From IMG/VR virus record IMGVR_UViG_2529293246_000006: a DNA stretch of 35,493 bases. One strand, written 5' to 3'. Under the pieces are notes generated by a model. That model ran no database searches, was not told where the DNA came from, and worked only from the letters and a program-made list of their open reading frames with translations. The DNA is from a virus. Taxonomy: Duplodnaviria > Heunggongvirae > Uroviricota > Caudoviricetes. Position numbers and translations under genes: made by a program. Every line of letters begins with the position of its first letter. The stretch's first letter is position 1. Of this stretch, positions 1-35,493 are shown piece by piece.

Positions 1-390
1 TTACTCCTTTTTCCCTGTATCGGCATCAGGTTCGCCATCAAACAGTTTGCCCTGCATCCGATCCAGTTCTTCTTTTCTGACCCGCTTCACCACGCTGTAA
101 ACCCACTGTAGTGAAACACCAAATTTGCGGGCCAGTTCGTGATGGTTGCGCCCGTCAAACTCCAGGAAAATTTCCCGGTCGCGCTGGCTGACCTTCCAGA
201 CCATGCCCATCGGAAAATAGACGTTTTGCCCACCCCAGACCTGCATCATGCGGTTCGCGACGGCCTGACCAATCTGGTCGGCAACTGCGGGTTCGATATC
301 AATAATCTCGCGGACAGTCTCAGAGGTATGCTGTGCCAGTTCCACCAACAGTTCCGGCCCTTTACTACGAAACTGATTCAGGTCGCTCAT
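1..390 (-). CDS. mor: Mor/C-family transcriptional activator (middle operon regulator-like), 129 aa
   Basis: ORF 1..420 trimmed to the internal ATG at 390 (MSDLNQF...), which gives the 129-aa size typical of Mor. That ATG overlaps the upstream gene's stop as ATGA. C-terminal HTH-like region; family assignment is from memory. Confidence 0.75.
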   Translation of the reverse strand: MSDLNQFRSKGPELLVELAQHTSETVREIIDIEPAVADQIGQAVANRMMQVWGGQNVYFPMGMVWKVSQRDREIFLEFDGRNHHELARKFGVSLQWVYSVVKRVRKEELDRMQGKLFDGEPDADTGKKE

Positions 391-815
391 TGCTTCACTC
401 CCGCAGCTCTGCGCTGCCACTTCTTCAGTTTCTCAATCACGCTACTTGCCTGCTCATTGCTGAGCCAGCGTAACGCGCTGATTCCGGTTTCCCGTTTAAC
501 CCACAGCGCCAGCGCCTGCTCTGAACTGTCACGGACGATGCCTGCGGCAGCCATTTCAAGCCATAGCGCACGGATTTTCTTTGACTGCGGATGGCTGTCG
601 AGCGGTAAGCCGGACTTGGCTTTCCCGGCAGGCTTAATGCGAAAGCCTTTCTTTTTCATTGATTCCAGCACGCGGTTTAGCTGTGGGGTATCCATCCCTT
701 TGGTTGAGGCTTTGCCGGTCAGCCCCTGTAGCATCTGGCGGTAGGTGTCCTCATCCATCTGGAGGTCGCTGCGGGCAATATGAATGAGTTGAATAAGACG
801 CTGCTTAGTCATCAT
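387..815 (-). CDS. gemA: GemA-like protein (Mu gp16 family)
   Basis: ORF 387..1004 trimmed to ATGATG at 815..810, preceded by an AGGAG Shine-Dalgarno. Protein starts MMTKQRLIQLIHIARSDL...; sits immediately upstream of mor as in Mu. Family assignment from memory. Confidence 0.6.
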   Translation of the reverse strand: MMTKQRLIQLIHIARSDLQMDEDTYRQMLQGLTGKASTKGMDTPQLNRVLESMKKKGFRIKPAGKAKSGLPLDSHPQSKKIRALWLEMAAAGIVRDSSEQALALWVKRETGISALRWLSNEQASSVIEKLKKWQRRAAGVKQ

Positions 816-4618: not shown

Positions 4619-6388
4619 TCAGTTACCGTTAACGATGCTGATAACGCTGTTGCGGGCCGGAGTGGTCAGGGTAACCATCACCTCATCCAGCGCGGCTTCA
4701 GGTACGCCATCCGGGTACTGCGCCGTTAACTGGCGGTAATGTTCCGGCGTCCAGATATGGCCGTTAGCGCCAAACTTCTCGCGCAGGGCTTTCGCCGCCT
4801 CCACATGGGTCAGCGGACGCTGCTCAATACGCGGCCCGCGCACGTCTGAAGCCTGACCGCGCTTCGGCATATAGGCCGGAAGCGTGGTGTCGTCGATATG
4901 TTTGTACGGGTCAAGTCGCCCGCCGAACGGCAGCGCCTTCGCCTTGCGTGCAGCAGCTGCATCGGTGGCGTTATCGGTGCCCGTAACCAGCTCTTCGATT
5001 TCTTTTGCCGCCGTCTGCGCCGGGGTCTCCGGCAGGGCTTTGTAGTTTTCGCCAAATACCGCCGCGTTTTCGGCAAAGCCGAACTCGTTCTTTCTGACCT
5101 CCTCGACCAGGAAGAACGTCTCGTGACCGTCCTCACCGGTCAGCACCACCTGCGCCACATCGCTGCGCCACGGGTTACGGGTAATCATCAGTTTTTCGCC
5201 GACCAGTACGCCCGGTACCGTCGAAACGTCAAACTCATTGCCCCGGAACGAGACGCGCAGTTTTGGTGTGACCTTACGGAGTTCCGGTGCGGCCACCGCC
5301 AGTTCGCGGCAAACCTCAACGGATGGCGCTTTTTTCAGCTGGTCAGCAGTAATCTTCAGCCAGATATCCGTGCGGGTTTTACCGTGGCGGCTGTGGACCG
5401 CCGTGGCGTTAAAGTGGCTGCGCCATTTCACCGCCAGTGCGTTCAGTTCGTCCAGGCTATGAACCGGCTGGAATTTGAGACCCGGCTCCAGTTTACGTTC
5501 GATAATGTCACGGGCCTTTTCCACCTGCCCGGTGGCGCGGGCGTTATGCGGCTTGTGCGCTATCAGATTGATGCCCAGCGAGCGGCACATGTTTTTCGTC
5601 ATGCCAGCGGTGTTCGCCGAACCGGGATCAAGGTAGAGTATTTTCGGCACGCCGTGCAGCACGTCCGCGCCGCCGCGCTCCTGCATGGCGTTGATAAGCA
5701 CAGAACAGAGGTTCTCACCAGATTCCGCACCCATCACGTACTCAACGTAAATCCAGCCGCTGGTATGGTCGGTAATCTCGTAACTCCACACGCGGTCACT
5801 GGCGATGCGGGCGATGTTGGCAGGCTTGTTCTTGTAGAACTTCGAGCTGTCCATCACCTGCAACCCTTTATGGCCGTTGCTCAGGTAGTAAAGCGTACAA
5901 AGTGAGGCATCAATCTCCCAGACGTGATTGGGATGCAGGCTGGCCATCTCGGACGACGGGGCCGGTGCGTCAAGCTGTTCCGGGTGCAGACCATAGTTCC
6001 GCAGGGCGCGGCTGATGGTATCCTCGGACAGCGGGAAAAACTCGCCTGTGGCCTCGTCCGTTCTGCCAGCAGTGATAAAGCCGTTTGACCGCAGGGTCTC
6101 CACCGCATCCGCGATGGAATACAGGCGCTTACCGTTCTTACGGGTGGCCTCGCGCAGCGTGGCAGATATCAGCGCGGCTTCGTCGCGGCTCAGGGCACTG
6201 CGCCCGGCATCGGCGCGTTTTTTACGTTTGTCAGTCACTGATACCTCCTTCAGCTTGCGCAGCAGGGTGGCGCGGGAAATGCCCAGTTCGGCGCAGGCGG
6301 CATCATATATCGCACCACGCTTACCATGCCCCGCGTCACGTGCCGCGCGGGCAACATAAACCAGTCGTTCAGTCAGGGCGGCACTCAT
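4619..6388 (-). CDS. DDE transposase (Mu/BcepMu-type, integrase-core fold)
   Basis: 589 aa. N-terminal HTH region, candidate catalytic Asp residues in HVWEIDAS and YLDPGSAN, followed by a conserved Glu region. Sits just upstream of the ATPase as in transposable phages. Confidence 0.85.
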   Translation of the reverse strand: MSAALTERLVYVARAARDAGHGKRGAIYDAACAELGISRATLLRKLKEVSVTDKRKKRADAGRSALSRDEAALISATLREATRKNGKRLYSIADAVETLRSNGFITAGRTDEATGEFFPLSEDTISRALRNYGLHPEQLDAPAPSSEMASLHPNHVWEIDASLCTLYYLSNGHKGLQVMDSSKFYKNKPANIARIASDRVWSYEITDHTSGWIYVEYVMGAESGENLCSVLINAMQERGGADVLHGVPKILYLDPGSANTAGMTKNMCRSLGINLIAHKPHNARATGQVEKARDIIERKLEPGLKFQPVHSLDELNALAVKWRSHFNATAVHSRHGKTRTDIWLKITADQLKKAPSVEVCRELAVAAPELRKVTPKLRVSFRGNEFDVSTVPGVLVGEKLMITRNPWRSDVAQVVLTGEDGHETFFLVEEVRKNEFGFAENAAVFGENYKALPETPAQTAAKEIEELVTGTDNATDAAAARKAKALPFGGRLDPYKHIDDTTLPAYMPKRGQASDVRGPRIEQRPLTHVEAAKALREKFGANGHIWTPEHYRQLTAQYPDGVPEAALDEVMVTLTTPARNSVISIVNGN

Positions 6389-6391
6389 GGG

Positions 6392-7300
6392 TTATGCCTC
6401 CTGCCCGTTAATCTCTGGCGTCGGGTCAGTCAGCCATGAAGGGGCGGCGTTGCCTGTCGGCTCGTCCGGCAGGTCAAATGTGGAGCGTAGGCTACGCGCG
6501 GTGCTTTCCAACTGGCAGACCAGACCGGCCATAAAGTCTCTGGGGGTATCAATCATATTTTCAGCACAGTATGCGCACAGGGTCTCAAAGGCGCTGGACA
6601 GTCGAACGGCGATGGCAGATTCCGCCTCAACCGCTAACGCTGTAACTTCCGCACGCAGCTTCTTCACCTCTTCGTCAGGCTTGGGCGGCTGGATACGGGA
6701 TTTCTTCTCCAGTTTTGTGGAGAGCGAGTCGATTTTTTCGTTTTTGTCGGCAAGCACGCGCTGTTGTGCTGCGTTGGTTTCGCGGGCTTCACGTAGGGCT
6801 TGACGCAATTCTCTACAGCTCATGCGGTCGACATCATCTAGTTTCAGACCCGCTACAGTGCCACCATCAGCCAGTTCAGCGAGAGATTCATCATCTTCAG
6901 TCATCAATTCAAAAAGTTTGGATTTACCCAAATGTGCCAACGTTGGCACATTTGATTTCAGTGCGGGGGATAAGTATTTAGTCGATGCTTGCATCATCCG
7001 CACAGAAGTTCGGTATGGTAAGCCCAACTCATTTTCAAGAATGTTAATAAATTCCCCGTGCGGCTCATTTTCTTTAAGAATTACAAGGCGCTTACCTGCT
7101 TCCAGCATCGCCTCAGCACTCTGTGCCATATAAAACCGTGTTTCGTGAACAATACGATCACGTTCATACGGCAGACCATCACCGAACTGCTGCATGATTT
7201 CGAGGCGATGTTCGGTCATGGCATTAAGACTAACGTTGAGGCCATCACTCAGCGGAGCATCTTCCATTAGTTCAACTGGTTGTGATTTTGTGCGTCCCAT
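6392..7300 (-). CDS. hypothetical early protein (302 aa, coiled-coil rich)
   Basis: ORF with an AAGGAG Shine-Dalgarno before the ATG at 7300. Central region is Glu/Lys/Ala-rich and looks coiled-coil. No family recognised. Confidence 0.5.
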   Translation of the reverse strand: MGRTKSQPVELMEDAPLSDGLNVSLNAMTEHRLEIMQQFGDGLPYERDRIVHETRFYMAQSAEAMLEAGKRLVILKENEPHGEFINILENELGLPYRTSVRMMQASTKYLSPALKSNVPTLAHLGKSKLFELMTEDDESLAELADGGTVAGLKLDDVDRMSCRELRQALREARETNAAQQRVLADKNEKIDSLSTKLEKKSRIQPPKPDEEVKKLRAEVTALAVEAESAIAVRLSSAFETLCAYCAENMIDTPRDFMAGLVCQLESTARSLRSTFDLPDEPTGNAAPSWLTDPTPEINGQEA

Positions 7301-9781: not shown

Positions 9782-9969
9782 TGACTGAACCCTGGTCGGC
9801 TCACAGTGCATACCTGTGGGTTGATGACCAGCCTGGTGTTACCGCACCGGGCTGGTCGTTCTTTCAAAGCCATCATGCGGTTCACGTCTGCATCCTCACT
9901 ATTAACGCTGTTTAAAATCCCTTTCCCCGACCATTTGTGATGCTGTCTCCACTACACAAGGAGACGCTC

Positions 9970-10320
9970 ATGAAAAACCTGAAAAAATTCATTCCCCCTG
10001 TTAAAAAGCCACGTCTCAGCGGCTGGCTGCTGACCGCTGTGCTGCTGCTCGGCACCATCGGTCTGGTATCGCCCCAGCAGCTGCCGGTGGTTGTCTACAA
10101 GCTATCACTCATCACGCTGGCGGCAGTATTGGGCTACTGGCTTGACCGTTCGCTTTTCCCCAAAGCCCGTCCCGGTCAGTACCTGAAGCATGATGACAGG
10201 CTGATGGCTGATGGTCGCTTCCCTGTCCAGACTGGCCTTCACCTGGTCTTTTCTGCTGCGCTAATCCGCCGTGCGCTGATTGTTGCTGCAGTCTGTCTGG
10301 CCGTAGCGATGGGGCTTTAA
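9970..10320 (+). CDS. putative holin (three predicted TM segments)
   Basis: ORF 9937..10320 trimmed to the ATG at 9970, preceded by an AAGGAG Shine-Dalgarno. Three hydrophobic stretches. Immediately precedes the endolysin. Confidence 0.5.
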   Translation: MKNLKKFIPPVKKPRLSGWLLTAVLLLGTIGLVSPQQLPVVVYKLSLITLAAVLGYWLDRSLFPKARPGQYLKHDDRLMADGRFPVQTGLHLVFSAALIRRALIVAAVCLAVAMGL

Positions 10321-15894: not shown

Positions 15895-16696
15895 ACTGGC
15901 GTACTGCATGACGTTGCCCCCCAAACGGGCTATCAGTTACCTGAAGTCCAAAGGGTATAGCTTCACGTGGGACTGGGAGGAGATGTGGCAGGATGCCCAT
16001 GCCCGCGCCTTTACCGTCGCCAAAGTGACCCGCCTTGATATCCTGGAAGATATTCGCGGGGCACTGCAGCAGGCTGTCGATGAAGGAAAAACAGGCCGCT
16101 GGTTCCGGCAGGAGCTGGAGCCGGAGCTGCAGCGTAAGGGATGGTGGGGGCCACGTGACACCACCGACCCGGTAACGGGCGAGCCGGTCACCATCCAGCA
16201 GGGCAGCCCATGGCGTCTCGACACCATCTTTCGCACAAATATGTCCGTACTCTACAGCGCCGGTCGCTGGGCTGAGCAGATGGAGAACGTCGACGACAGG
16301 CCGTACTGGATGTATACCGGCATCAACGACAGCCATACCCGCAAGAGCCATCTGGCGCTGCATGGTCTGGTGCTGCGCTATGATGACCCGTTCTGGCAGG
16401 CGTTCTATCCGCCGAACGGCTGGCGCTGCCGTTGTGGCGTGATTGCCCTGAGCGCGGCGGATGTGCGTGCCCGTGGCCTGAAGGTGTCAGGTTCTGGCGC
16501 AGCTCTGGGATGGGAGCTGAAGCTGGTCTCAGAGAAAACCGGCGAGATGCAGAACGTCGCCACCTTCAATACCGGCACCACGAAGGTGGCTACCGACGTC
16601 GGCTGGTCTTATGCGCCGGGGGCAGCATACCGTCCCGACCTTGCCCGCTATCAGGGGACGCTTCAACCGCTGGCACAGCAGGAACTGAGAGGATAA
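15875..16696 (+). CDS. head morphogenesis protein (Mu F-like)
   Basis: ORF 15848..16696 trimmed to the ATG at 15875. Size and position downstream of portal fit the Mu F family. Confidence 0.65.
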   Translation: MSVTTAELAYCMTLPPKRAISYLKSKGYSFTWDWEEMWQDAHARAFTVAKVTRLDILEDIRGALQQAVDEGKTGRWFRQELEPELQRKGWWGPRDTTDPVTGEPVTIQQGSPWRLDTIFRTNMSVLYSAGRWAEQMENVDDRPYWMYTGINDSHTRKSHLALHGLVLRYDDPFWQAFYPPNGWRCRCGVIALSAADVRARGLKVSGSGAALGWELKLVSEKTGEMQNVATFNTGTTKVATDVGWSYAPGAAYRPDLARYQGTLQPLAQQELRG

Positions 16697-16698
16697 CG

Positions 16699-17157
16699 AT
16701 GGCTTCCGATAACCTGGTCAATGTCACCATTAACGATGAATCCCTGCGCCGGAGCCTCCGTGCGCTGGATCTTGCTGCCACAGACCTGGAACCCGCGATG
16801 CGCAAAATCGCCGGAACCCTGCTGGCGGAAACGCAGTTTAACTTTCTCGATGAGGGGCGTCCGGGGTGGACTCCCTCGCTGGCAGCGCAGGAGCGCGACG
16901 GGCAAACGCTGCAGGATACCGGGCGTCTGATGGGGTCGGTATCAACCGACCATGACGACCGGCAGGCAGCGGTTGGCACTAATGTCGTTTATGGGCCGAT
17001 TCACCAGTTTGGGGGTAAAACGGGGCGTAATGAGTCCGTTGAACTTCCTGCCCGTCCGTTCCTGCCGCTGACGGGGGACGGTGAGCTGCAGCCTGAAGTG
17101 GTTGTCCCTATCCTCGATACGATTGTCCGCCATCTTGAAGCAGCGGCCCGTCGCTGA
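16699..17157 (+). CDS. virion morphogenesis protein (Mu G-like)
   Basis: ATG at 16699 after a GAGAGGA Shine-Dalgarno (MASDNLVNVTIND...), 152 aa. Family assignment from memory. Confidence 0.65.
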   Translation: MASDNLVNVTINDESLRRSLRALDLAATDLEPAMRKIAGTLLAETQFNFLDEGRPGWTPSLAAQERDGQTLQDTGRLMGSVSTDHDDRQAAVGTNVVYGPIHQFGGKTGRNESVELPARPFLPLTGDGELQPEVVVPILDTIVRHLEAAARR

Positions 17158-17201
17158 GTTTTGTCTCTGCAGGCGGGTGATTTATCATTGCCAGCCGCTG
17201 A

Positions 17202-17237
17202 GGGGCTGTATTACCTTTATAAAGGCTTTACAGCCCC
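17202..17237. promoter_or_regulatory. 36-bp imperfect palindrome in the G-I intergenic spacer
   Basis: GGGGCTGT...CCTTTATAAAGG...ACAGCCCC, with 8-bp perfect outer arms and a 12-bp perfect inner palindrome. Lies in a 214-bp non-coding gap. Confidence 0.4.
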
Positions 17238-17371
17238 CGCTTTGCACCACTATTCGCCCGCAGCGTGACATTCCCCGTACTGATACCCCCGATTTTTTCT
17301 AAAGCAGATTAAAAGCGCTGCTGACGCTTTTTCCACAGACTGTCCCCGACAACGTAACGCGGGACAGCAAA

Positions 17372-18469
17372 ATGCCAGCCATTCACATTTTTAAAGCCGG
17401 TACTCATACCGATATGCACGGCACGAAATTGCCGTTCACGCAAAGCGATCTTGCCGCCTGCGTGAAAGCCTATGACCCGTCCGTCCATGAAGCACCACTC
17501 GTTATCGGCCACCCCAAAACGGAAGACCCGGCGTGGGGCTGGGTGAAATCCCTGTCGCTTAACGGCGGCGATCTGCTGGCTGAGCCTGACCAGCTCGACC
17601 CGCAGTTTGCCGAACTGGTGGGCAACGGGCGCTTCAAGAAGGTCTCAGCCTCGTTCTATCTCCCGGACTCACCGAACAACCCGAAGCCCGGCACGCTTTA
17701 CCTGCGTCATGTCGGCTTTCTGGGGGCGCAGCCACCGTCCATTAAGGGGCTTAAGCAGGTTTCGTTTGGTGAGAAAGAAGAAGGCGTCGTGGAGTTTGCC
17801 GACTGGAGTGATATCACCAACGCCTCTTTATGGGGCCGTCTGCGCGATTTTCTGATCGCCCAGTTCGGGCTGGACGAGACCGACAAGGTGCTTCCTTCAT
17901 GGCAGGTGGACTCCCTGCGTGAAGAGGCTTACCGCGACACCGGGAAGTCTGAACCGGACTTCAGTGAACACAATCCCACCCCTCAAAAAGAGAACAGCAC
18001 CATGACTGAAGAAGAAATCAAAGCGCTTCAGGCGGAAAACACGCGTCTGAAAGCGGAAGCCACCCAGCGGGCGGAACAGGAAGCGAAGGCTAAGCAGGAC
18101 AAACTGCACGCGGACAACGTCTCCTTTGCCGAGAAGCTGGTTGGCGATGGCCGACTGGCTCCTAAAGCGAAGTCGGTTGTCGTGGCCATTCTGGACGCGG
18201 TCTCTGCAGGCGACAAGCCGGTTGAGTTTGCCGAAGGCGATATCCGCACCCCTCTGGCCACGGCGTTTAAGACGCTGCTGGACAGCACTGAGCCGGTACT
18301 GAATTTCAGTGAGCACGCGACCAAAGACCGCGTGAACACGGAGATCAAAACGACGTCAGCAGAGTTCGCTGAAGCCGACCCGGAACGTCTGGCGCTGCAT
18401 CAGAAAGCGCTGGAACTGTCGAAAAAAGAAGGCATCAGCTACGACGCTGCTGTCTCCCGCTGCCTGTAA
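17372..18469 (+). CDS. head maturation protease / scaffold (Mu I-like)
   Basis: 365 aa. N-terminal domain then a Glu/Lys/Ala-rich coiled-coil C-terminus, typical of fused protease-scaffold proteins. Upstream of the major head protein. Confidence 0.7.
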   Translation: MPAIHIFKAGTHTDMHGTKLPFTQSDLAACVKAYDPSVHEAPLVIGHPKTEDPAWGWVKSLSLNGGDLLAEPDQLDPQFAELVGNGRFKKVSASFYLPDSPNNPKPGTLYLRHVGFLGAQPPSIKGLKQVSFGEKEEGVVEFADWSDITNASLWGRLRDFLIAQFGLDETDKVLPSWQVDSLREEAYRDTGKSEPDFSEHNPTPQKENSTMTEEEIKALQAENTRLKAEATQRAEQEAKAKQDKLHADNVSFAEKLVGDGRLAPKAKSVVVAILDAVSAGDKPVEFAEGDIRTPLATAFKTLLDSTEPVLNFSEHATKDRVNTEIKTTSAEFAEADPERLALHQKALELSKKEGISYDAAVSRCL

Positions 18470-18482
18470 TTAAGGAGAGAAC

Positions 18483-19436
18483 ATGTCTGACTATTTAAAG
18501 GGTAAGCGCGTTGTTGACCCGGTGCTGACCAGCATCGCTCGCGGTTATAAAAATGCCGCATTTATCGGCGAACGCATCTTCCCCATTGTCCAGACCGATA
18601 AGGAAGGTGTGACCGTCCCGACCTTCGGTAAATCCGCCTTTGTTGAGTACGACACCGAGCGTGCCGTGGGGGCTGACAGTAACGTCCTGGTACGTGAGAA
18701 GACCGGCAAACTGGATCTGGTTCTTAACGAGCACGATCTGGCCGCGCCGGTGGACTACCGCGAGCAGGCGGAGTCGATGTTCAACGAAGAGGCCAAGGCC
18801 ATTCGTCGCGTGACCAGTGGCGTCAACCTGAAGCGCGAACTGTATGCGGCCCGTCTGGCGCAGGACAAAAACGTTTACCCGGCATCGTCCGTTAAAGCAC
18901 TGGCAGCTGCTGAACGCTGGGTCGGTGGTAAAGGTGATCCAATTGGCATTATTGAAGGTGGCATTGAGGCGGTACGTAACAAAACCGGCCTGCGCCCAAA
19001 CCTGATGACCATGGGGGCCAGCGTCATGTCGCTGCTGAAGTTCCACCCGGCGATTCAGGCCGCGATTGGAGCCAACGAGCGCAAGCGTATCACCATCGAA
19101 ATTCTGAAAGACCTTTTCCAACTGGAAGATGTGGCGATCGGCGAGCCGGTCTCCATGGCCTCCATGAAAGACGCGCAGAACAAGGACAAAGTCCCGACCG
19201 ATATCTGGGGTGACAACCTGATGCTGCATTACGTTGGCAAACCGCAACCAGGCACCGACAGCGCCGACGAAAACGAGCCGTCATTCGGTTACACCCTGCG
19301 CCGTAAAGGGATGCCGGTGGCGGATAAATACGACGGTGTCGGCGGCAAAGTGAAGTACTGCCGTTATACCGATATCTACAAAGTCGCCGTGGTCGGTGGC
19401 GATGCCGGGTATCTCGTCACCAACATCGTGAAATAA
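18483..19436 (+). CDS. major head (capsid) subunit (Mu T-like)
   Basis: 317 aa with a good AGGAGAGAACATG start, following the protease/scaffold gene. Confidence 0.75.
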   Translation: MSDYLKGKRVVDPVLTSIARGYKNAAFIGERIFPIVQTDKEGVTVPTFGKSAFVEYDTERAVGADSNVLVREKTGKLDLVLNEHDLAAPVDYREQAESMFNEEAKAIRRVTSGVNLKRELYAARLAQDKNVYPASSVKALAAAERWVGGKGDPIGIIEGGIEAVRNKTGLRPNLMTMGASVMSLLKFHPAIQAAIGANERKRITIEILKDLFQLEDVAIGEPVSMASMKDAQNKDKVPTDIWGDNLMLHYVGKPQPGTDSADENEPSFGYTLRRKGMPVADKYDGVGGKVKYCRYTDIYKVAVVGGDAGYLVTNIVK

Positions 19437-19804: not shown

Positions 19805-20251
19805 ATGTACTGCACCCTCGCGGATTTGCTTGAACAGGTTCCTGAGCGGACGCTAATCCAGCTCACCAATGAGGAGCTGGACTTCGACTCGCCCGCGACG
19901 GTGAAAACTGAGGTGGTGGACAGCTGTATTCGCTATGCCGATGAACTGATTGATGCCCATCTGCGCGGACGCTATACCCTGCCGCTGGCGGAAATACCGA
20001 CCGTTCTGCGGGACATTGCCATCACGCTGGTGCGTTACCGGCTCTACACCCGCCGCCCGGAAGGGGCTGTCCCGGATACCGTGAAGGATGACCACAAAGA
20101 GGCCCGGCGACAGCTGGAGGGGTTGCGTGACAACAAGCTGACGCTGGGGCTGCAGTCCACTCAAAAAGACGTGCCTGAGTCCGGTGAAATCCGGGCGCGG
20201 GCACGTCGCCCCACCTTTGGCGGGCGCGATGGCTTACTGGAGAAATACTGA
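19805..20251 (+). CDS. Mu gp36-like protein (DUF1320)
   Basis: ATG at 19805, two bases after the upstream stop. Family from memory. Confidence 0.5.
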   Translation: MYCTLADLLEQVPERTLIQLTNEELDFDSPATVKTEVVDSCIRYADELIDAHLRGRYTLPLAEIPTVLRDIAITLVRYRLYTRRPEGAVPDTVKDDHKEARRQLEGLRDNKLTLGLQSTQKDVPESGEIRARARRPTFGGRDGLLEKY

Positions 20252-23194: not shown

Positions 23195-23218
23195 AGGGGC
23201 TTCGGCCCCTTTCTTCTT
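23195..23218 (+). terminator. rho-independent terminator after the moron
   Basis: AGGGGC-TTCG-GCCCCT hairpin (23195-23210) followed by TTCTTCTT. Confidence 0.6.
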
Positions 23219-23286
23219 AATCCCCTTTAATATCCGTCACGTCCACCTCCAGACATACTGCTCTGAACTTACACAGGAGCACGATC

Positions 23287-23601
23287 ATGTCACAGACCCA
23301 ATCCGATACTTTTAAGCTGTCTTACCCCTTCACCACCGCAGCAGGCACCAGAGTTGAGCAGGTTGAACTGAAACGCCTGACGGTCAAAGACCTGAAGCAG
23401 GTGCGCAAAATCAGTAAAGACCCGGCTGACTGGGACGAACCGCTCATTGCCCGTAGCACCGGTATTCTCCCCGAAGACCTCGATAACATGGATCTTGCCG
23501 ATTACATGGAGCTGCAGAAACGATTTCAGCAAGTCACTGGGCTGGGCAAGAGCGACGAAAACGCTGATGCAGGCGCAGGGGCTGCTGGCGAGGTGGTTTA
23601 G
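23287..23601 (+). CDS. tail assembly chaperone (P2 E / Mu gp41-like)
   Basis: 104 aa with an AGGAG Shine-Dalgarno, between the tube and tape-measure genes. An overlapping downstream ORF sits in another frame. Confidence 0.6.
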   Translation: MSQTQSDTFKLSYPFTTAAGTRVEQVELKRLTVKDLKQVRKISKDPADWDEPLIARSTGILPEDLDNMDLADYMELQKRFQQVTGLGKSDENADAGAGAAGEVV

Positions 23602-27358: not shown

Positions 27359-28515
27359 ACAGCACTGCACAGGTCGCATCAGCGTTAACCGGCGTCAGCG
27401 ATGTTCTGAGTCCGGTGTTCACGCTGTGGTATCTGCAGAAGAACATCACCACCGATATCGCCCCCTATGTCACCCGCGTAACCTACAGCGATAACATCAA
27501 AAGCGAGTCCGATACCATTGAGGTGGAGCTGGACGACACCGATGGCCGCTGGCTGGATAAGTGGTATCCGGGCAAGGGTGACACGCTGACGCTGAAAATG
27601 GGTTATCAGGGCGAGAAGCTGCTGTCCTGTGGTACGTTCTCGATAGACGAGATCGAGGTGAGTTCGCCCGCGTCCGTTGTCGCTATCCGGGGCGTGGCCA
27701 CGTCGGTCAACAACGCCCTGCGGACAAAATCCAGTCGTGGTTTCGAGAGCACCACGCTGGCGGCTATAGCCGGACGGATTGCCAAAAAGCATCAGCTGAA
27801 GCTGGTTGGCAGTATTGAGTCCATCAAAATTGACCGGGTGACCCAGTATGCTGAAACGGACGTGGGCTTCCTGCGTCGACTGGCCAGCGAGTATGGTTAT
27901 GCCGTGAAAGTGGTCAGCGACCAGCTGATTTTCTCTCATCTGGCCACGCTGCGCGATCAGGAGCCGGTAAAACAGTTGAAGCCACAGGATGTGGCCAGCT
28001 TTTCCCTGCGTGACACCATCAACCGCGTCTACAAATCCGCAAAGGTAAAACACCAGAAGAGCAGCGATAAAAAGCTGATCGTCTACGAAGCTGATGGCGG
28101 TACCAGCGAAAGCGACAAACAAACCAAAGGCGGTAAGGTCACCAGTGCCGACTCACTGAAGGTCAACAGCCGCGTCAGTGATCCGGACAGCGCCCGGATT
28201 AAAGCAGATTCGGCGCTGGCCAGGCATAACGAATACCAGCAGAACGGCTCGCTGTCGCTGATGGGGACGCCTCAGTTGACTGCAGGCAACAAAATTGAAC
28301 TGGTGGGTTTTGGTCAGTTATCCGGGCCATGGCTGATAACTACTGCCCGCCATGCGTTTGACCGTAACAGCGGCTACATCACCGAACTGGAAGTGGCACG
28401 AGGGCCGGTTACGCAGGGCAAAGCGAAGAAAGGTAAAAAGACCGGAAAAACCCAGACGCTGACCGTCTATAAACCGGACGGCAGCACGTCCACGGTAATA
28501 AAGGAGAAAAAATAA
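27346..28515 (+). CDS. tail/baseplate hub protein (P2 gpD-like)
   Basis: 389 aa following the X-like gene, as in the P2-type X-D pair. Family from memory. Confidence 0.7.
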   Translation: MAEINSTAQVASALTGVSDVLSPVFTLWYLQKNITTDIAPYVTRVTYSDNIKSESDTIEVELDDTDGRWLDKWYPGKGDTLTLKMGYQGEKLLSCGTFSIDEIEVSSPASVVAIRGVATSVNNALRTKSSRGFESTTLAAIAGRIAKKHQLKLVGSIESIKIDRVTQYAETDVGFLRRLASEYGYAVKVVSDQLIFSHLATLRDQEPVKQLKPQDVASFSLRDTINRVYKSAKVKHQKSSDKKLIVYEADGGTSESDKQTKGGKVTSADSLKVNSRVSDPDSARIKADSALARHNEYQQNGSLSLMGTPQLTAGNKIELVGFGQLSGPWLITTARHAFDRNSGYITELEVARGPVTQGKAKKGKKTGKTQTLTVYKPDGSTSTVIKEKK

Positions 28516-32843: not shown

Positions 32844-33442
32844 TCACCACTCAATAATCACAATACCATTTTTACCGGAGCCGGATTTATTACTACTGTT
32901 AGCAGCAATCCCACCACCACCGCCCCCATAACCAGGCGCATCCAGACCCATCCCTGTAGATCCTCGGCCTCCGGGGCCGCCACCGTTGCCGCCGCAATTT
33001 GCCGAGTTGGCTGAACCGTCATCCCCCCAACCCAACCCCTGATTAACGTCTCCGCCAAAACCGGCTCCCGACGAACCACCGGATGTTGATGTGCCGCCAT
33101 ACCCATACTGACCACCAGTCGCGGAGAGATAAGAACCAAAAGAAGATGACCCACCGGATGCGCCATTACCTGTAGTTACGCCAGCACCAGCAGAGCCAAC
33201 GGTTACCGTAACGCTTGAAACGTCTGTGAGATCGAGAAGCAATTTCGAATATCCGCCACCGCCGCCACCGCCCCCGCGCTTTGTTGTATCGGTAGTCGAC
33301 CCGCCAGACGCTCCACCACCAATTACTGTCACCTGGCATTTTCGCCCTTGTTGGAGTGCCTCAGGAACGTTCCAGTTAGATACTCCAGGGGTGTTGAAAA
33401 CAACTATGTTTTGCAGGCCAAAGGCCGATGCTCCTAAACCAA
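32844..33442 (-). CDS. alternative tail-fibre C-terminal variable domain (Sv'-like), promoterless cassette, Gly-rich
   Basis: Minus-strand ORF reads ...FSKNLGLGASAFGLQNIV... across the right inversion site, in frame with the constant part (FLQNL) after inversion. Contains long Gly runs (GGGGGGGG, GGGGGG). Confidence 0.55.
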
Positions 33443-33456
33443 GGTTTTTGGAAAAG
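33431..33456. repeat. right inversion site (gix/hix-like), core AA at 33441-33442
   Basis: CTCCTAAACC-AA-GGTTTTTGGAAAAG is the inverted partner of the site at 31571-31596; 61 bp upstream of the invertase start. Confidence 0.7.
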
Positions 33457-33516
33457 CAGTTACACATAGCGAAATCTGCAAAAATCCTCCTACCGCGACA
33501 TAGAGGAGGAAAATTG

Positions 33517-34098
33517 ATGGCCGTCATTGGTTATATCCGCGTATCAACAATCGACCAGAACAGCGATTTACAGCGTAATGCGCTCACAAGCGCAAACTGT
33601 GACCGCATTTTTGAAGACCGTATGAGCGGAAAAGTTGCCAGCCGCCCCGGTCTGAAACGCGCTTTAAAGTGCGTTAATAGCGGAGACACCCTGGTCGTGT
33701 GGAAACTGGACAGGCTGGGGCGCAGCGTTAAGAACCTGATCGCACTGATATCAGAATTACATGAACGCGGTGCCCACTTCCGCTCTTTAACAGACAGTAT
33801 TGATACCAGCACTGCCATGGGGCGCTTCTTTTTCCATGTGATGTCAGCACTGGCGGAGATGGAACGTGAGCTGATCGTCGAACGAACACTGGCCGGGTTG
33901 GCAGCAGCCAGAGCACAGGGACGCATAGGTGGAAGGCCCAATGCATTAAAACCGCATGAGCGGGAACAGATTGGGAGACTATTGGCCAGGGGACATACTC
34001 GCCAGCAACTGGCCATAATCTACGGAGTGGGATTATCGACGCTCTATCGGTATTTTCCGGTAGATAGTCAGAGGAAGGATGAAGCGGTAGGATTGTAA
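33517..34098 (+). CDS. gin: site-specific serine DNA invertase (Gin/Hin/Pin/Cin family)
   Basis: 193 aa. MAVIGYIRVSTIDQNSDLQRNAL...GDTLVVWKLDRLGRS...SLTDSIDTS..GRFFFHVMSALAEMERELIVERT closely matches the Gin/Hin sequences I recall, including the catalytic Ser in VSTIDQ. GAGGAGGA Shine-Dalgarno. Confidence 0.9.
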   Translation: MAVIGYIRVSTIDQNSDLQRNALTSANCDRIFEDRMSGKVASRPGLKRALKCVNSGDTLVVWKLDRLGRSVKNLIALISELHERGAHFRSLTDSIDTSTAMGRFFFHVMSALAEMERELIVERTLAGLAAARAQGRIGGRPNALKPHEREQIGRLLARGHTRQQLAIIYGVGLSTLYRYFPVDSQRKDEAVGL

Positions 34099-34132
34099 TT
34101 CTTTTGCAAATATTGAAACGCCGCAGCGATGC

Positions 34133-34176
34133 CATTTATCTCACGGAAATGGGCGCATTTATCGCGCGGCGCATCA
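34133..34176. repeat. prophage right terminus with two transposase-binding-like repeats; phage DNA ends ...CA at 34176
   Basis: CATTTATC at 34133-34140 and 34156-34163. Read inward from the end, the terminus is TGATGCGCCGCGCGATAAATGCG..., resembling the Mu R end TGAAGCGGCGCACGAAAAACGCG...CGATAAATGCG as I recall it. Confidence 0.65.
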
Positions 34177-35493
34177 TTTCATGGTTACGCCGGTGATTAA
34201 ACCAATCACCGCCACTACCATCAGGTAATAGGCAGGCATCATCAGATTCTGCGAGCTTTCGACCAGCCAGGCCGCCAGTGTTGGCGTCAGACCGGCAACC
34301 AGCACCGAAATATTAAATGCCGCCGCCAGCGCGCTGTAACGGATATGCGTCGGGAACATCGCTGGCAAGGTAGAAGCCATAACGCCCGTAAAGCAGTTAA
34401 GGATCACCGCCAGCATCAGTAACCCGGCAAAAATCAGGCCGATGACGTTACTGTTAATCAGAATAAACGCCGGGATCGCCAACACAAACAGGGCAACACT
34501 ACCAAGTAGCACAAACGGACGACGGCCAAAACGGTCACTCAGCAAGCCCATCACCGGCTGGACAAACAGCATACCGATCATAATGGCGATAATAATCAGC
34601 ACCCCGTGGTCTTCGGAGTAATGCAGGTTATGCGACAAATAACTCGGCATATAGGTCAGCAACATGTAGTAAGTCACGTTGGTGGCAATTACCAGACCAA
34701 TACATGTCAACAGGCTGCGCCAGTGTTTGGTGGCAATCTCTTTAAACGAGACTTTCGGGCCATCCTGCAAACCTTCGCGGTCGCCCTGTTCCAGTTTATC
34801 GACATGCTGCTGGAACGCCGGAGTTTCTTCCAGCGCATGGCGCAGGTAAAGCCCGATAATCCCTAACGGCAGAGCAATAAAGAACGGAATACGCCAGCCC
34901 CAGTCGAGGAAGTTCGCTTCGCCGACAATGGTCGAAATTAACACCACTACGCCAGCACCCAGCACAAACCCGGCAATAGAACCAAAGTCCAGCCAGCTGC
35001 CCATAAAGCCACGTTTACGGTCAGGGGAGTATTCCGCAACAAATATCGACGCCCCGGTATATTCACCGCCGACCGAGAAACCTTGTGCCATCTTACAGAT
35101 CAACAGCAGAATCGGTGCCCAAATACCAATCGTGTCGTAGGACGGTATTAAGCCAATACAGAACGTACTGATCGACATAATCACAATAGTGATAGCGAGG
35201 ATCTTCTGGCGACCATATTTATCGCCCAACATACCAAAGAAGAGTCCGCCAAGCGGTCGAATCAGAAAGGGAACGGAGAACGTGGCAAGTGCAGCAACCA
35301 TCTGCACGCTGGGGTCAGCCCCCGGGAAAAAAACTTTACCTAATGCGTAAGCAACAAAACCATAAACACCAAAATCAAACCATTCCATTGCATTACCCAG
35401 TGATGCTGCGGTAATGGCTTTACGCAGTTTACCGTCATCAATAATGGTGACATCACGAAGGGTAATCGGTTTTACTTTTTTCCTTTTCAGCAT
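34174..35493 (-). CDS. proP: proline/glycine-betaine MFS transporter ProP, 3'-truncated by the prophage insertion (439 of ~500 codons)
   Basis: Protein starts MLKRKKVKPITLRDVTIIDDGKLRKAITAASLGNAMEWFDFGVYGFVAYALGKVFFPG..., matching E. coli ProP from memory. The frame ends ...GVTMK and then a TGA formed by the phage terminal TGA at 34174-34176. The C-terminal domain is missing. Confidence 0.8.
   Translation of the reverse strand: MLKRKKVKPITLRDVTIIDDGKLRKAITAASLGNAMEWFDFGVYGFVAYALGKVFFPGADPSVQMVAALATFSVPFLIRPLGGLFFGMLGDKYGRQKILAITIVIMSISTFCIGLIPSYDTIGIWAPILLLICKMAQGFSVGGEYTGASIFVAEYSPDRKRGFMGSWLDFGSIAGFVLGAGVVVLISTIVGEANFLDWGWRIPFFIALPLGIIGLYLRHALEETPAFQQHVDKLEQGDREGLQDGPKVSFKEIATKHWRSLLTCIGLVIATNVTYYMLLTYMPSYLSHNLHYSEDHGVLIIIAIMIGMLFVQPVMGLLSDRFGRRPFVLLGSVALFVLAIPAFILINSNVIGLIFAGLLMLAVILNCFTGVMASTLPAMFPTHIRYSALAAAFNISVLVAGLTPTLAAWLVESSQNLMMPAYYLMVVAVIGLITGVTMK

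Follow-up and report, generated by a model that had tools for sequence, protein, structure and literature searches.

A conserved ten-base palindromic core near the centre of a BcepMu-like transposable prophage and its candidate roles

The stretch of DNA analysed here (35,493 nucleotides, referred to as the window; IMG/VR virus record IMGVR_UViG_2529293246_000006) is a BcepMu-like (BcepMu-type) transposable prophage in which a 36-bp palindrome lies between the late genes G and I, close to the centre of the phage genome. Compared with its relatives, the palindrome is this lineage's form of a single-copy element, GTAAAG-N1-2-CTTTATAAAG, that is found in either orientation. The G-I spacer is the junction of two late operons and holds two separate elements, the second being the late promoter of I, ~80 bp further downstream; the palindrome is not part of it. 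The element may be a gyrase-type site, a regulator site or a terminator, and the three roles are not mutually exclusive; our tentative preference, held at less than even confidence, is for a DNA-level central cis-acting site that would be the counterpart of the central gyrase site of Mu.

The palindrome and its conserved core

The palindrome and the two segments within it that are conserved are as follows.

17202–17237, no strand assigned: 36-bp palindrome (dyad B), the best palindrome in the window and significantly stable
17215–17224, no strand assigned: palindromic core CTTTATAAAG, single copy in the genome
17226–17235, no strand assigned: conserved right flank CTTTACAGCC, in which the minus-strand GTAAAG forms the third alternating pentamer

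Dyad B reads GGGGCTGTA-TTA-CCTTTA/TAAAGG-CTT-TACAGCCCC, with the slash at the axis, and is composed of 18-nt arms that match at 15 of 18 positions (83% complementarity) with zero spacer. It is the sole palindrome in the window with 15/18 arm matches, a level reached in 0/30 shuffled windows, and its predicted fold is stable both as RNA (−22.7 kcal/mol, z −4.2, 0/200 shuffles equally stable) and as DNA (−11.6 kcal/mol, z −3.8). An earlier note on this DNA had described both the dyad at this position and the 214-bp separation of G and I as the largest gap of the late region; the arm count, shuffles and folding bear out the former, and the latter agrees with all other late gaps (98, 195, 54 and 161 bp, with 190 bp before the holin gene). 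The runner-up palindromes (6924–6959, 20168–20207 and 27778–27813) have 14/18 arms and all lie within coding regions, and shuffles reach the 14/18 level ~0.7 times per window.

Conservation was followed through 98 loci representing 29 variants. The inner 12 nt, CCTTTATAAAGG, show zero substitutions in the 96 enteric-lineage loci, while the remaining two, from the phages BcepMu and phiE255, read GTTTTATAAAGG and differ by one base; the right flank, (C)TTTACAGCC, is nearly invariant across the 98 loci. The sequence TTTATAAAGGCTTTA is common to the window, BcepMu and phiE255 and is embedded in DNA that is otherwise unalignable (local alignment p<0.002). Among relatives in which I is 46–68% identical, most have CTTTATAAAG or TTTTATAAAG positioned 136–200 bp upstream of I, and two distant lineages have a tandem pair of cores 10 bp apart. 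The core is found once in the window, once in Klebsiella phage KP12 and once, as TTTTATAAAG, in BcepMu, against an expected count of 0.03. In several distant lineages GTAAAG stands on the left-hand side of the core (GTAAAGGCTTTATAAAG), so that the arrangement in the window is mirrored, and because this flank is found on either side the element can be described as three alternating TAAAG pentamers for which either orientation is possible.

The earlier note had taken the 36-bp dyad as the unit, a description that the comparison revises to the 10-bp core plus one flanking GTAAAG, with long arms that are lineage-specific. The outer arms are kept with other sequences in some lineages (CCCGTAAAG/CTTTACGGG in BcepMu), are shortened to 4–5 bp in Pectobacterium-type lineages, where one change is compensatory, and have disappeared from one enteric lineage (~16 loci). 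Dyad symmetry beyond the core is enriched, with at least 8 of 15 matches in 51% of variants versus 6% of shuffled-flank controls; this extended symmetry is not universal, and the arm sequences differ by lineage.

Central position and a separate late promoter of I

Across 16400–18500 the window is 99.9% identical to Escherichia phage Phi06_2974 B, 96% identical to Klebsiella phage KP12 and 81% identical to E. coli phage PhiKM, which belongs to the genus Bcepmuvirus; Burkholderia phage BcepMu gives weaker matches to the same region, and the gene order of the window agrees with that of BcepMu. The early genes lie on the minus strand from 7842 leftwards and also encode an AAA+ MuB-like protein and GemA, while the late genes lie on the plus strand with the holin gene first. 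The genes referred to below are listed here, with the start of G taken from the KP12 and PhiKM annotations.

1–420, minus strand: Mor-family activator gene, the leftmost phage gene (Pfam Mor, E 1.3e-42; BcepMu gp1 has the same position)
4619–6388, minus strand: rve-type transposase gene of the early block
16699–17157, plus strand: gene G (virion morphogenesis/tail completion), last of the lysis-head-assembly late operon (Pfam Phage_tail_S, E 5.7e-22)
17372–18469, plus strand: gene I (head protease/scaffold), first of the next late operon (homology to BcepMu gp32, B3 ORF36 and Mu I)

The right phage end was placed at 34176 (...GCGCATCA), where the sequence matches the repeat at the BcepMu termini. 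For the left end, a prophage of E. coli AW1.7 with 99.9% identity, which starts with TGATTAGACTTGAGATAAATGAC, gave a position 161 bp outside the window, to the left of position 1. These ends give a genome of ~34,337 bp with its centre at window coordinate ~17008, so that the palindrome axis is located at 50.6% of the genome, 211 bp (0.6%) to the right of centre, and 16,957 bp from the right end. The earlier note, which lacked the left end, had put the spacer ~17 kb from the right end and near the middle of a genome of 35–37 kb, and with both ends located the central position is confirmed. The axis of the BcepMu palindrome falls at 51.0% of its genome, and the G-I or equivalent gap is positioned at 48.6–52% in Mu, BcepMu, B3, phiSHP3, YPCBV-1 and Ab30; because this gap is central across these phages, the positional argument for a site of the Mu type holds.

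The second element of the spacer was recognised when 70 different G-I spacers, drawn from collections of viruses and genomes, were aligned. The alignment has three conserved blocks, the second being TTTTTTCTAAAGCAGATTAAAAGC at 17293–17316. It is accompanied by the following features.

17293–17315, plus strand: T6 run and activator box of P_I, the promoter of I, TAAAGCAGATTAAAAG, conserved in all relatives
17336–17344, plus strand: −10-like CAGACT and conserved CTGTC, the CTGTC exactly 25 nt past TTAAAA
9903–9947, plus strand: twin late promoter P_lys, TAACGCTGTTTAAAAT-N25-CTGTC, before the lysis genes, with an equivalent in KP12
17311–17331, no strand assigned: second small hairpin, AAAAGCG-CTGCTGA-CGCTTTT, within the promoter spacer
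17340–17367, plus strand: 5′-leader hairpin CTGTCCC...GGGACAG over the ribosome-binding site of I (from fold and alignment)

A Mor-type late promoter for I at ~17293–17350 is well supported. On the plus strand of the window TTAAAA-N25-CTGTC has two sites only (9912–9947 and 17309–17344), and the longer motif TAAnGCnGnTTAAAA-N25-CTGTC is likewise confined to two sites, one before the lysis genes (9903–9947) and one before I (17300–17344). In BcepMu an identical 19-mer, TAAAGCCGATTAAAAGACC, stands ahead of both the holin gene and I, and the box and its spacing persist in lineages in which I is only ~47–50% identical. The motif recurrence, the BcepMu 19-mer and the Mor gene uphold the late promoter that the earlier note had expected in the spacer, though the palindrome is not part of it. 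The distance from core to promoter box varies from 64 to 131 bp across lineages, with no fixed helical phasing. A scan with the sigma-70 consensus found no hexamer pair at the activator box, and its sole match in the region is at 17161–17188 (9/12).

The arrangement at 17293–17350 is like that of the Mor- and C-dependent promoters of Mu (Pm, Plys, PI, PP and Pmom): the block has no −35 element, and its box, similar to the Mor site of Mu (TAAAGCCGGTTAA), is located upstream of a weak −10. A second copy of the motif stands ahead of the lysis operon, and the phage has a gene of the Mor family. The activator box resembles the Mu middle-promoter region AGTAAAGCCGGTTAATCCGGC, in which the Mor site is AGTAAAGCCGGTTAA, and a Mor dimer binds a dyad centred at −43.5 of the Mu middle promoter (PMC4287176). 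Unlike the Mor site and the C site TTAT-N5-6-ATAA of Mu, which are dyad-symmetric, the box in the window is not, and in place of the Mor-then-C cascade there is apparently one activator. The Mor-family protein encoded at 1–420 is presumed to be the activator of both P_lys and P_I, and the transcript of I would be expected to start at ~17345–17356.

The second hairpin, also pointed out in the earlier note, does exist; it is weak, however, and lies within the promoter spacer, with its A run part of the activator box and its T run between the box and the −10-like element. On the minus strand it takes the form of a terminator-like hairpin (17331–17311). In many lineages (e.g., L169, L189 and L194) an inverted repeat of unrelated sequence, such as CTGAGCC..GGCTCAG or GGGCCA..TGGCCC, is positioned between the activator box and the −10-like CTGT, and a promoter-spacer dyad thus appears to be a conserved structural feature of these promoters. 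The leader hairpin of I is conserved in the enteric lineages, and its conservation over the likely ribosome-binding site suggests that the protease/scaffold gene may be under translational control.

Candidate roles of the element

To our knowledge, the central gyrase site of Mu is the only well-studied cis element that is required mid-genome in a transposable genome. Working equivalents have been sought in other Mu-like phages, with attempts that mostly failed (reviewed in PMC10052514). The core described here is a candidate of just 10 bp with sharp limits. It is conserved between host genera and occurs in many prophages of E. coli, Klebsiella, Pectobacterium and Burkholderia, and these ten bases make the central-site question directly testable. 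The result would be ordinary if the element were only a regulator's operator or a terminator. The definition of the late-promoter motif of the phage group will additionally aid annotation and the reading of prophage induction transcriptomes.

The occurrence of the element in either orientation, its variable spacing to the promoter and its lineage-specific arms suggest a site that acts at the level of DNA, and the conservation of the core exceeds what a hairpin needs. In the mechanism that we envisage, a highly deformable centre, TATA, flanked by T and A runs and set in G+C-rich arms, would be bound and bent, and gyrase would cut ~20 bp to the left, with TTTATAAA at +19 as TTTTTTAAAA is in Mu. 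Alternatively, the element may be extruded as a cruciform. By either route it would mark the apex of a supercoiled loop that pairs the phage ends for replicative transposition.

The comparison with Mu and Sp18 gives this proposal its context. In the Mu record the gyrase cut is annotated at 17879/17880, 20 bp past G and 479 bp from the genome centre, and the palindrome of the window lies at the corresponding G-I junction, ahead of the late promoter of I. Like the strong gyrase sites of Mu and of Sp18, a Mu-like prophage of E. coli O157, the element is a single-copy cis element in the G-I spacer, positioned within ~1% of the centre of a transposable-phage genome, is followed by the late promoter of I, and combines T-run/A-run motifs in a G+C-rich setting with hairpin-forming dyads. 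T-run/A-run motifs are observed at this junction in Mu, in B3 (GTTTATAAAC) and, twice, in YPCBV-1 (CTTTTAAAC), and by analogy they provide what seems the best comparative argument for a Mu-like function. In Mu they occupy the I-proximal (right) side of the gyrase site, of which the right arm is essential (PMC10052514; PMC13284261).

A further parallel is found in the D3112-like Pseudomonas phage Ab30, for which an insertion-free intergenic segment of 37 bp has been proposed as a gyrase site (PMC5977238). This candidate (L197, 437–500) is composed of two copies of GGCACA(T/A)TGTGCC and, like the element in the window, is palindromic, lies between genes and is found near the middle of a transposable-phage genome, ~150 bp or less from the centre; it differs in having G+C-rich palindromes where the element here has an A+T core, and in its gene junction. 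A palindrome at the genome centre may be common to transposable phages in general. A more far-reaching form of the proposal, which we regard as doubtful, is that CTTTATAAAG with GTAAAG would be the defining centre site of BcepMu-like transposable phages, a compact palindrome that arranges the genome topologically so that its ends can pair. It would do so as a strong gyrase site of a new, minimal kind or, without gyrase, as a cruciform or hinge at the loop apex, with the B3 (GTTTATAAAC) and YPCBV-1 (CTTTTAAAC) palindromes doing the same job in other genera.

A gyrase site at the palindrome is possible on the basis of its position and the analogy with Mu. For comparison with known specificity, the motif that Sutormin et al. 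(PMC6379681) described for E. coli gyrase was rebuilt from 576 published pairs of coordinate and score together with the first 250 kb of W3110, as a symmetrised frequency matrix with a ridge correction. The rebuilt motif has a cross-validated r of 0.86 with the published scores, places G at 0 and C at +3 in the correct register, and reproduces the published central consensus; the exact published weight matrix was not recovered by linear regression (416, then 576 scores; windows of 120–188 bp; L1), which left a residual standard deviation of ~1.2. An outstanding match to the E. coli motif has been reported for the Mu, pSC101 and pBR322 sites (PMC6379681), and with the Mu site left out of training the rebuilt motif ranks it 2nd of 36,717, at the annotated 4-bp stagger. 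The 133-bp published consensus alone, scored by identity or by strong/weak-base agreement, missed the Mu site in Mu and was dropped. The scores obtained were as follows.

Window, best in spacer: 7.9 at 17281, rank 116 of 35,493
Window, Mu-like core at 17179: 3.5–4.0, z 1.3, unremarkable
BcepMu, best in spacer: 9.7, rank 156
KP12, best in spacer: 7.4, rank 196
Sp18-type prophage (control), best in spacer: 4.9, rank 922 of 38,721

Several observations weigh against a role as a gyrase site of the Mu kind. The rebuilt motif scores the spacer of the window as ordinary (~4.6 at 17200), and the BcepMu and KP12 spacers are ordinary likewise. Although GCGGGTGATTTAT at 17173–17186, in the G+C-rich hairpin that follows G (dyad A), resembles the Mu core GCGG(C/G)TGATTTTAT, the match of GCGGGTGATTT to the Mu core, GCGG(G/C)TGATTT (score 17), is at chance level by shuffling (p ~0.19), with no significant similarity to the core or right arm of the Mu site. 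The junction of phiSHP3 is without a T-run/A-run motif. The element is, in addition, a compact perfect palindrome that is invariant across host genera, whereas the sites of Mu, D108 and Sp18 are >100 bp long and asymmetric, with an essential right arm and no invariant core. The sequence preference of gyrase is loose, and no 10-mer is invariant among the known Mu-type sites in this comparison; a sequence-specific protein would therefore better account for perfect conservation. Conserved gene order alone could also explain the central position.

The negative motif result is itself weak, because the same matrix misses the spacer of the Sp18-type prophage, and the Sp18 site reportedly functions in Mu (PMC10052514). 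The similarity of the window to the Sp18-type spacer is not significant (p ~0.29 by shuffling). Inspected by eye, that spacer (L198, 20250–20425) contains a long imperfect palindrome, GGCGCGTG...GATTTT...AAAATC...GCGCC, and then TTTGTATTTTT. When the motif was averaged over 26 lineages, cleavage-centre peaks appeared 19–20, 40 and 100 bp to the left of the axis (3.8, 4.4 and 5.4, respectively, with a null maximum of 3.56), and in 10 lineages the local best score, up to 9.9, is located at −16 to −22 of the axis. With a cleavage centre at −19, TTTATAAA takes the same +19 position as TTTTTTAAAA in Mu. This peak is at most a marginal hint of gyrase, as it rises barely above the null and results largely from a trough of the motif coinciding with the single A+T-rich core.

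A sequence-specific binder leads to a different account, in which the element would be the operator of a DNA-binding protein of the phage itself (the Mor-family activator or some other early protein that is conserved), with the three alternating TAAAG pentamers bound by a dimer or tetramer that tunes P_I or blocks upstream read-through. A conserved 10-bp palindrome with lineage-specific dyad extension is what would be expected of a co-evolving dimeric binder, and the triple TAAAG/CTTTA cluster formed by core and flank occurs nowhere else in the window. Read in the minus-strand direction, the element looks like the activator box, which is itself similar to the Mu Mor site (GTAAAG-CCTTTA-TAAAG compared with CTAAAG-CAGAT-TAAAAG in the window), and in BcepMu the two share an identical 8-mer, the element reading GTAAAGCC-TTTA-TAAAA and the box GTAAAGCC-GAT-TAAAA; the phage, moreover, encodes a Mor-family protein. 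The box and the element do not covary, however, as the box is altered in some lineages (TAAAC, TAATG) in which the core and its GTAAAG flank are unchanged. Inspection of the sequence found no −10-like element after the core at promoter spacing on either strand, half-sites 5–6 bp apart are unusual for helix-turn-helix dimers, and a single site, without a second one at P_lys or in the control region of the early genes, is unexpected for the activator. The spacing of 64–131 bp to P_I also lacks helical phasing. We regard an operator as rather unlikely. Other binders and signals were set aside: BcepMu has an HU-like protein, but no ORF (open reading frame) of the window matches HU, and a sigma-70 promoter formed from the core TATAAA with TTTACA has, by eye, the wrong order and spacing on both strands and no conserved partner hexamer. 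No match to the consensus of IHF, Fis, DnaA, CRP or P2 Ogr-type (TGT-N12-ACA) sites was seen, for which no formal scan was made.

The palindrome might instead be an intrinsic terminator, or an RNA hairpin that stabilises the 3′ end, closing the lysis-to-G transcript. It is positioned ~45 bp past the G stop codon and upstream of P_I, and like rho-independent terminators it would form a stable, G+C-rich RNA hairpin where an operon ends, and in several sister lineages T tracts follow it. A test requiring a single hairpin of −8 kcal/mol or better across the core, with a T tract within 2 nt, identified such a structure in 20/72 variants versus 8/375 random positions in the same loci; it replaced an earlier and less strict test (outermost enclosing pair in 100-nt folds) that was uninformative, as shuffled controls were equally stable. 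The positive variants represent ~7 independent lineages (PhiKM, L029, BcepMu/phiE255, L147, L149, L152 and L188), and because of this excess over controls the hairpin is a plausible terminator in those lineages, where, under the central-site proposal, it would probably also end the upstream transcript. In sequences read by eye without folding, long imperfect hairpins with T-rich tails are also seen in this gap in Mu and in the Sp18-type prophage. In the window, however, the tail after the hairpin is CGCTTTGC, with no U tract, and the canonical terminator of the phage, after the tail-tube gene (23195–23210), looks quite different (GGGGCTTCGGCCCC followed by TTTCTTCTT). Additionally, 72% of variants are without a hairpin and T tract, the outer stem is gone in one enteric lineage, and the invariant 10-nt apex and conserved 3′ flank go beyond what a terminator requires. 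Mismatches in the stem show no strand bias (~4 independent G·T versus 2 A·C events, which are too few) and do not speak for a role as RNA. That the element is no more than a terminator is, in our judgement, improbable.

That the palindrome is a chance or neutral feature without function, for example the remnant of a mobile repeat, is very improbable, and the conservation effectively refutes it. It is the best palindrome of the window, at a level unreached in shuffles, and its core is unchanged in enteric relatives, one base off in the Burkholderia phages and recurrent where flanking DNA is unalignable; the element is single-copy and is therefore not a dispersed repeat.

Other features of the spacer, late region and prophage ends

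The remainder of the spacer is occupied by two segments.

17166–17201, no strand assigned: dyad A, an imperfect G+C-rich hairpin shortly after the G stop codon (from folding)
17238–17292, no strand assigned: variable linker, unconserved in length and sequence, with indels in the alignment

The arms of dyad A vary by lineage yet remain complementary (GGGGCGG/CCGCCCC, GGCGGCACA/TGTGCCGCC and GGCGC/GCGCC), and in Pectobacterium-lineage spacers GGCGGCACA...TGTGCCGCC is found just past G. Dyad A (TGATAAATCA) has no more than a 7-mer in common with the repeats G(A/C)GATAAATG at the phage ends, a similarity that was judged weak. A coding ORF in the spacer (annotated as 41 aa in KP12; a 73-aa ORF at 17081–17302 in the window) was rejected because indels between lineages disrupt the frame. 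In a search of Rfam 15 no family reached its gathering score, and there were two sub-threshold matches only (E 0.52 and 6.7). The better of these, to the Cupriavidus-1 small RNA (22.8 bits compared with a gathering score of 45.5), is located at 17375–17449 on the minus strand, antisense to the start of I, and is probably due to chance.

Elsewhere in the late region, the position of P_lys implies that the holin gene begins at 9970, as in KP12, and not at the first GTG at 9937. At 23214–23229, directly after the terminator at 23195–23210, an inverted half of the activator box (TTCTTAATCCCCTTTA) is followed by ATACTGCTCTG, and a third late promoter may be present near 23195–23265, ahead of the tail-chaperone gene at 23287.

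At its right end the prophage sits within an MFS sugar-transporter gene (34017–35493), and the terminal TGA of the phage provides the stop codon of the truncated host ORF. The adjoining region (32844–34016) contains two minus-strand ORFs, one with a glycine-rich domain and the other without a Pfam match, and it has no invertase gene, whereas KP12 has a DNA invertase there. From their position, these ORFs might represent alternative genes for the tail fibre in an invertible segment that has become frozen.

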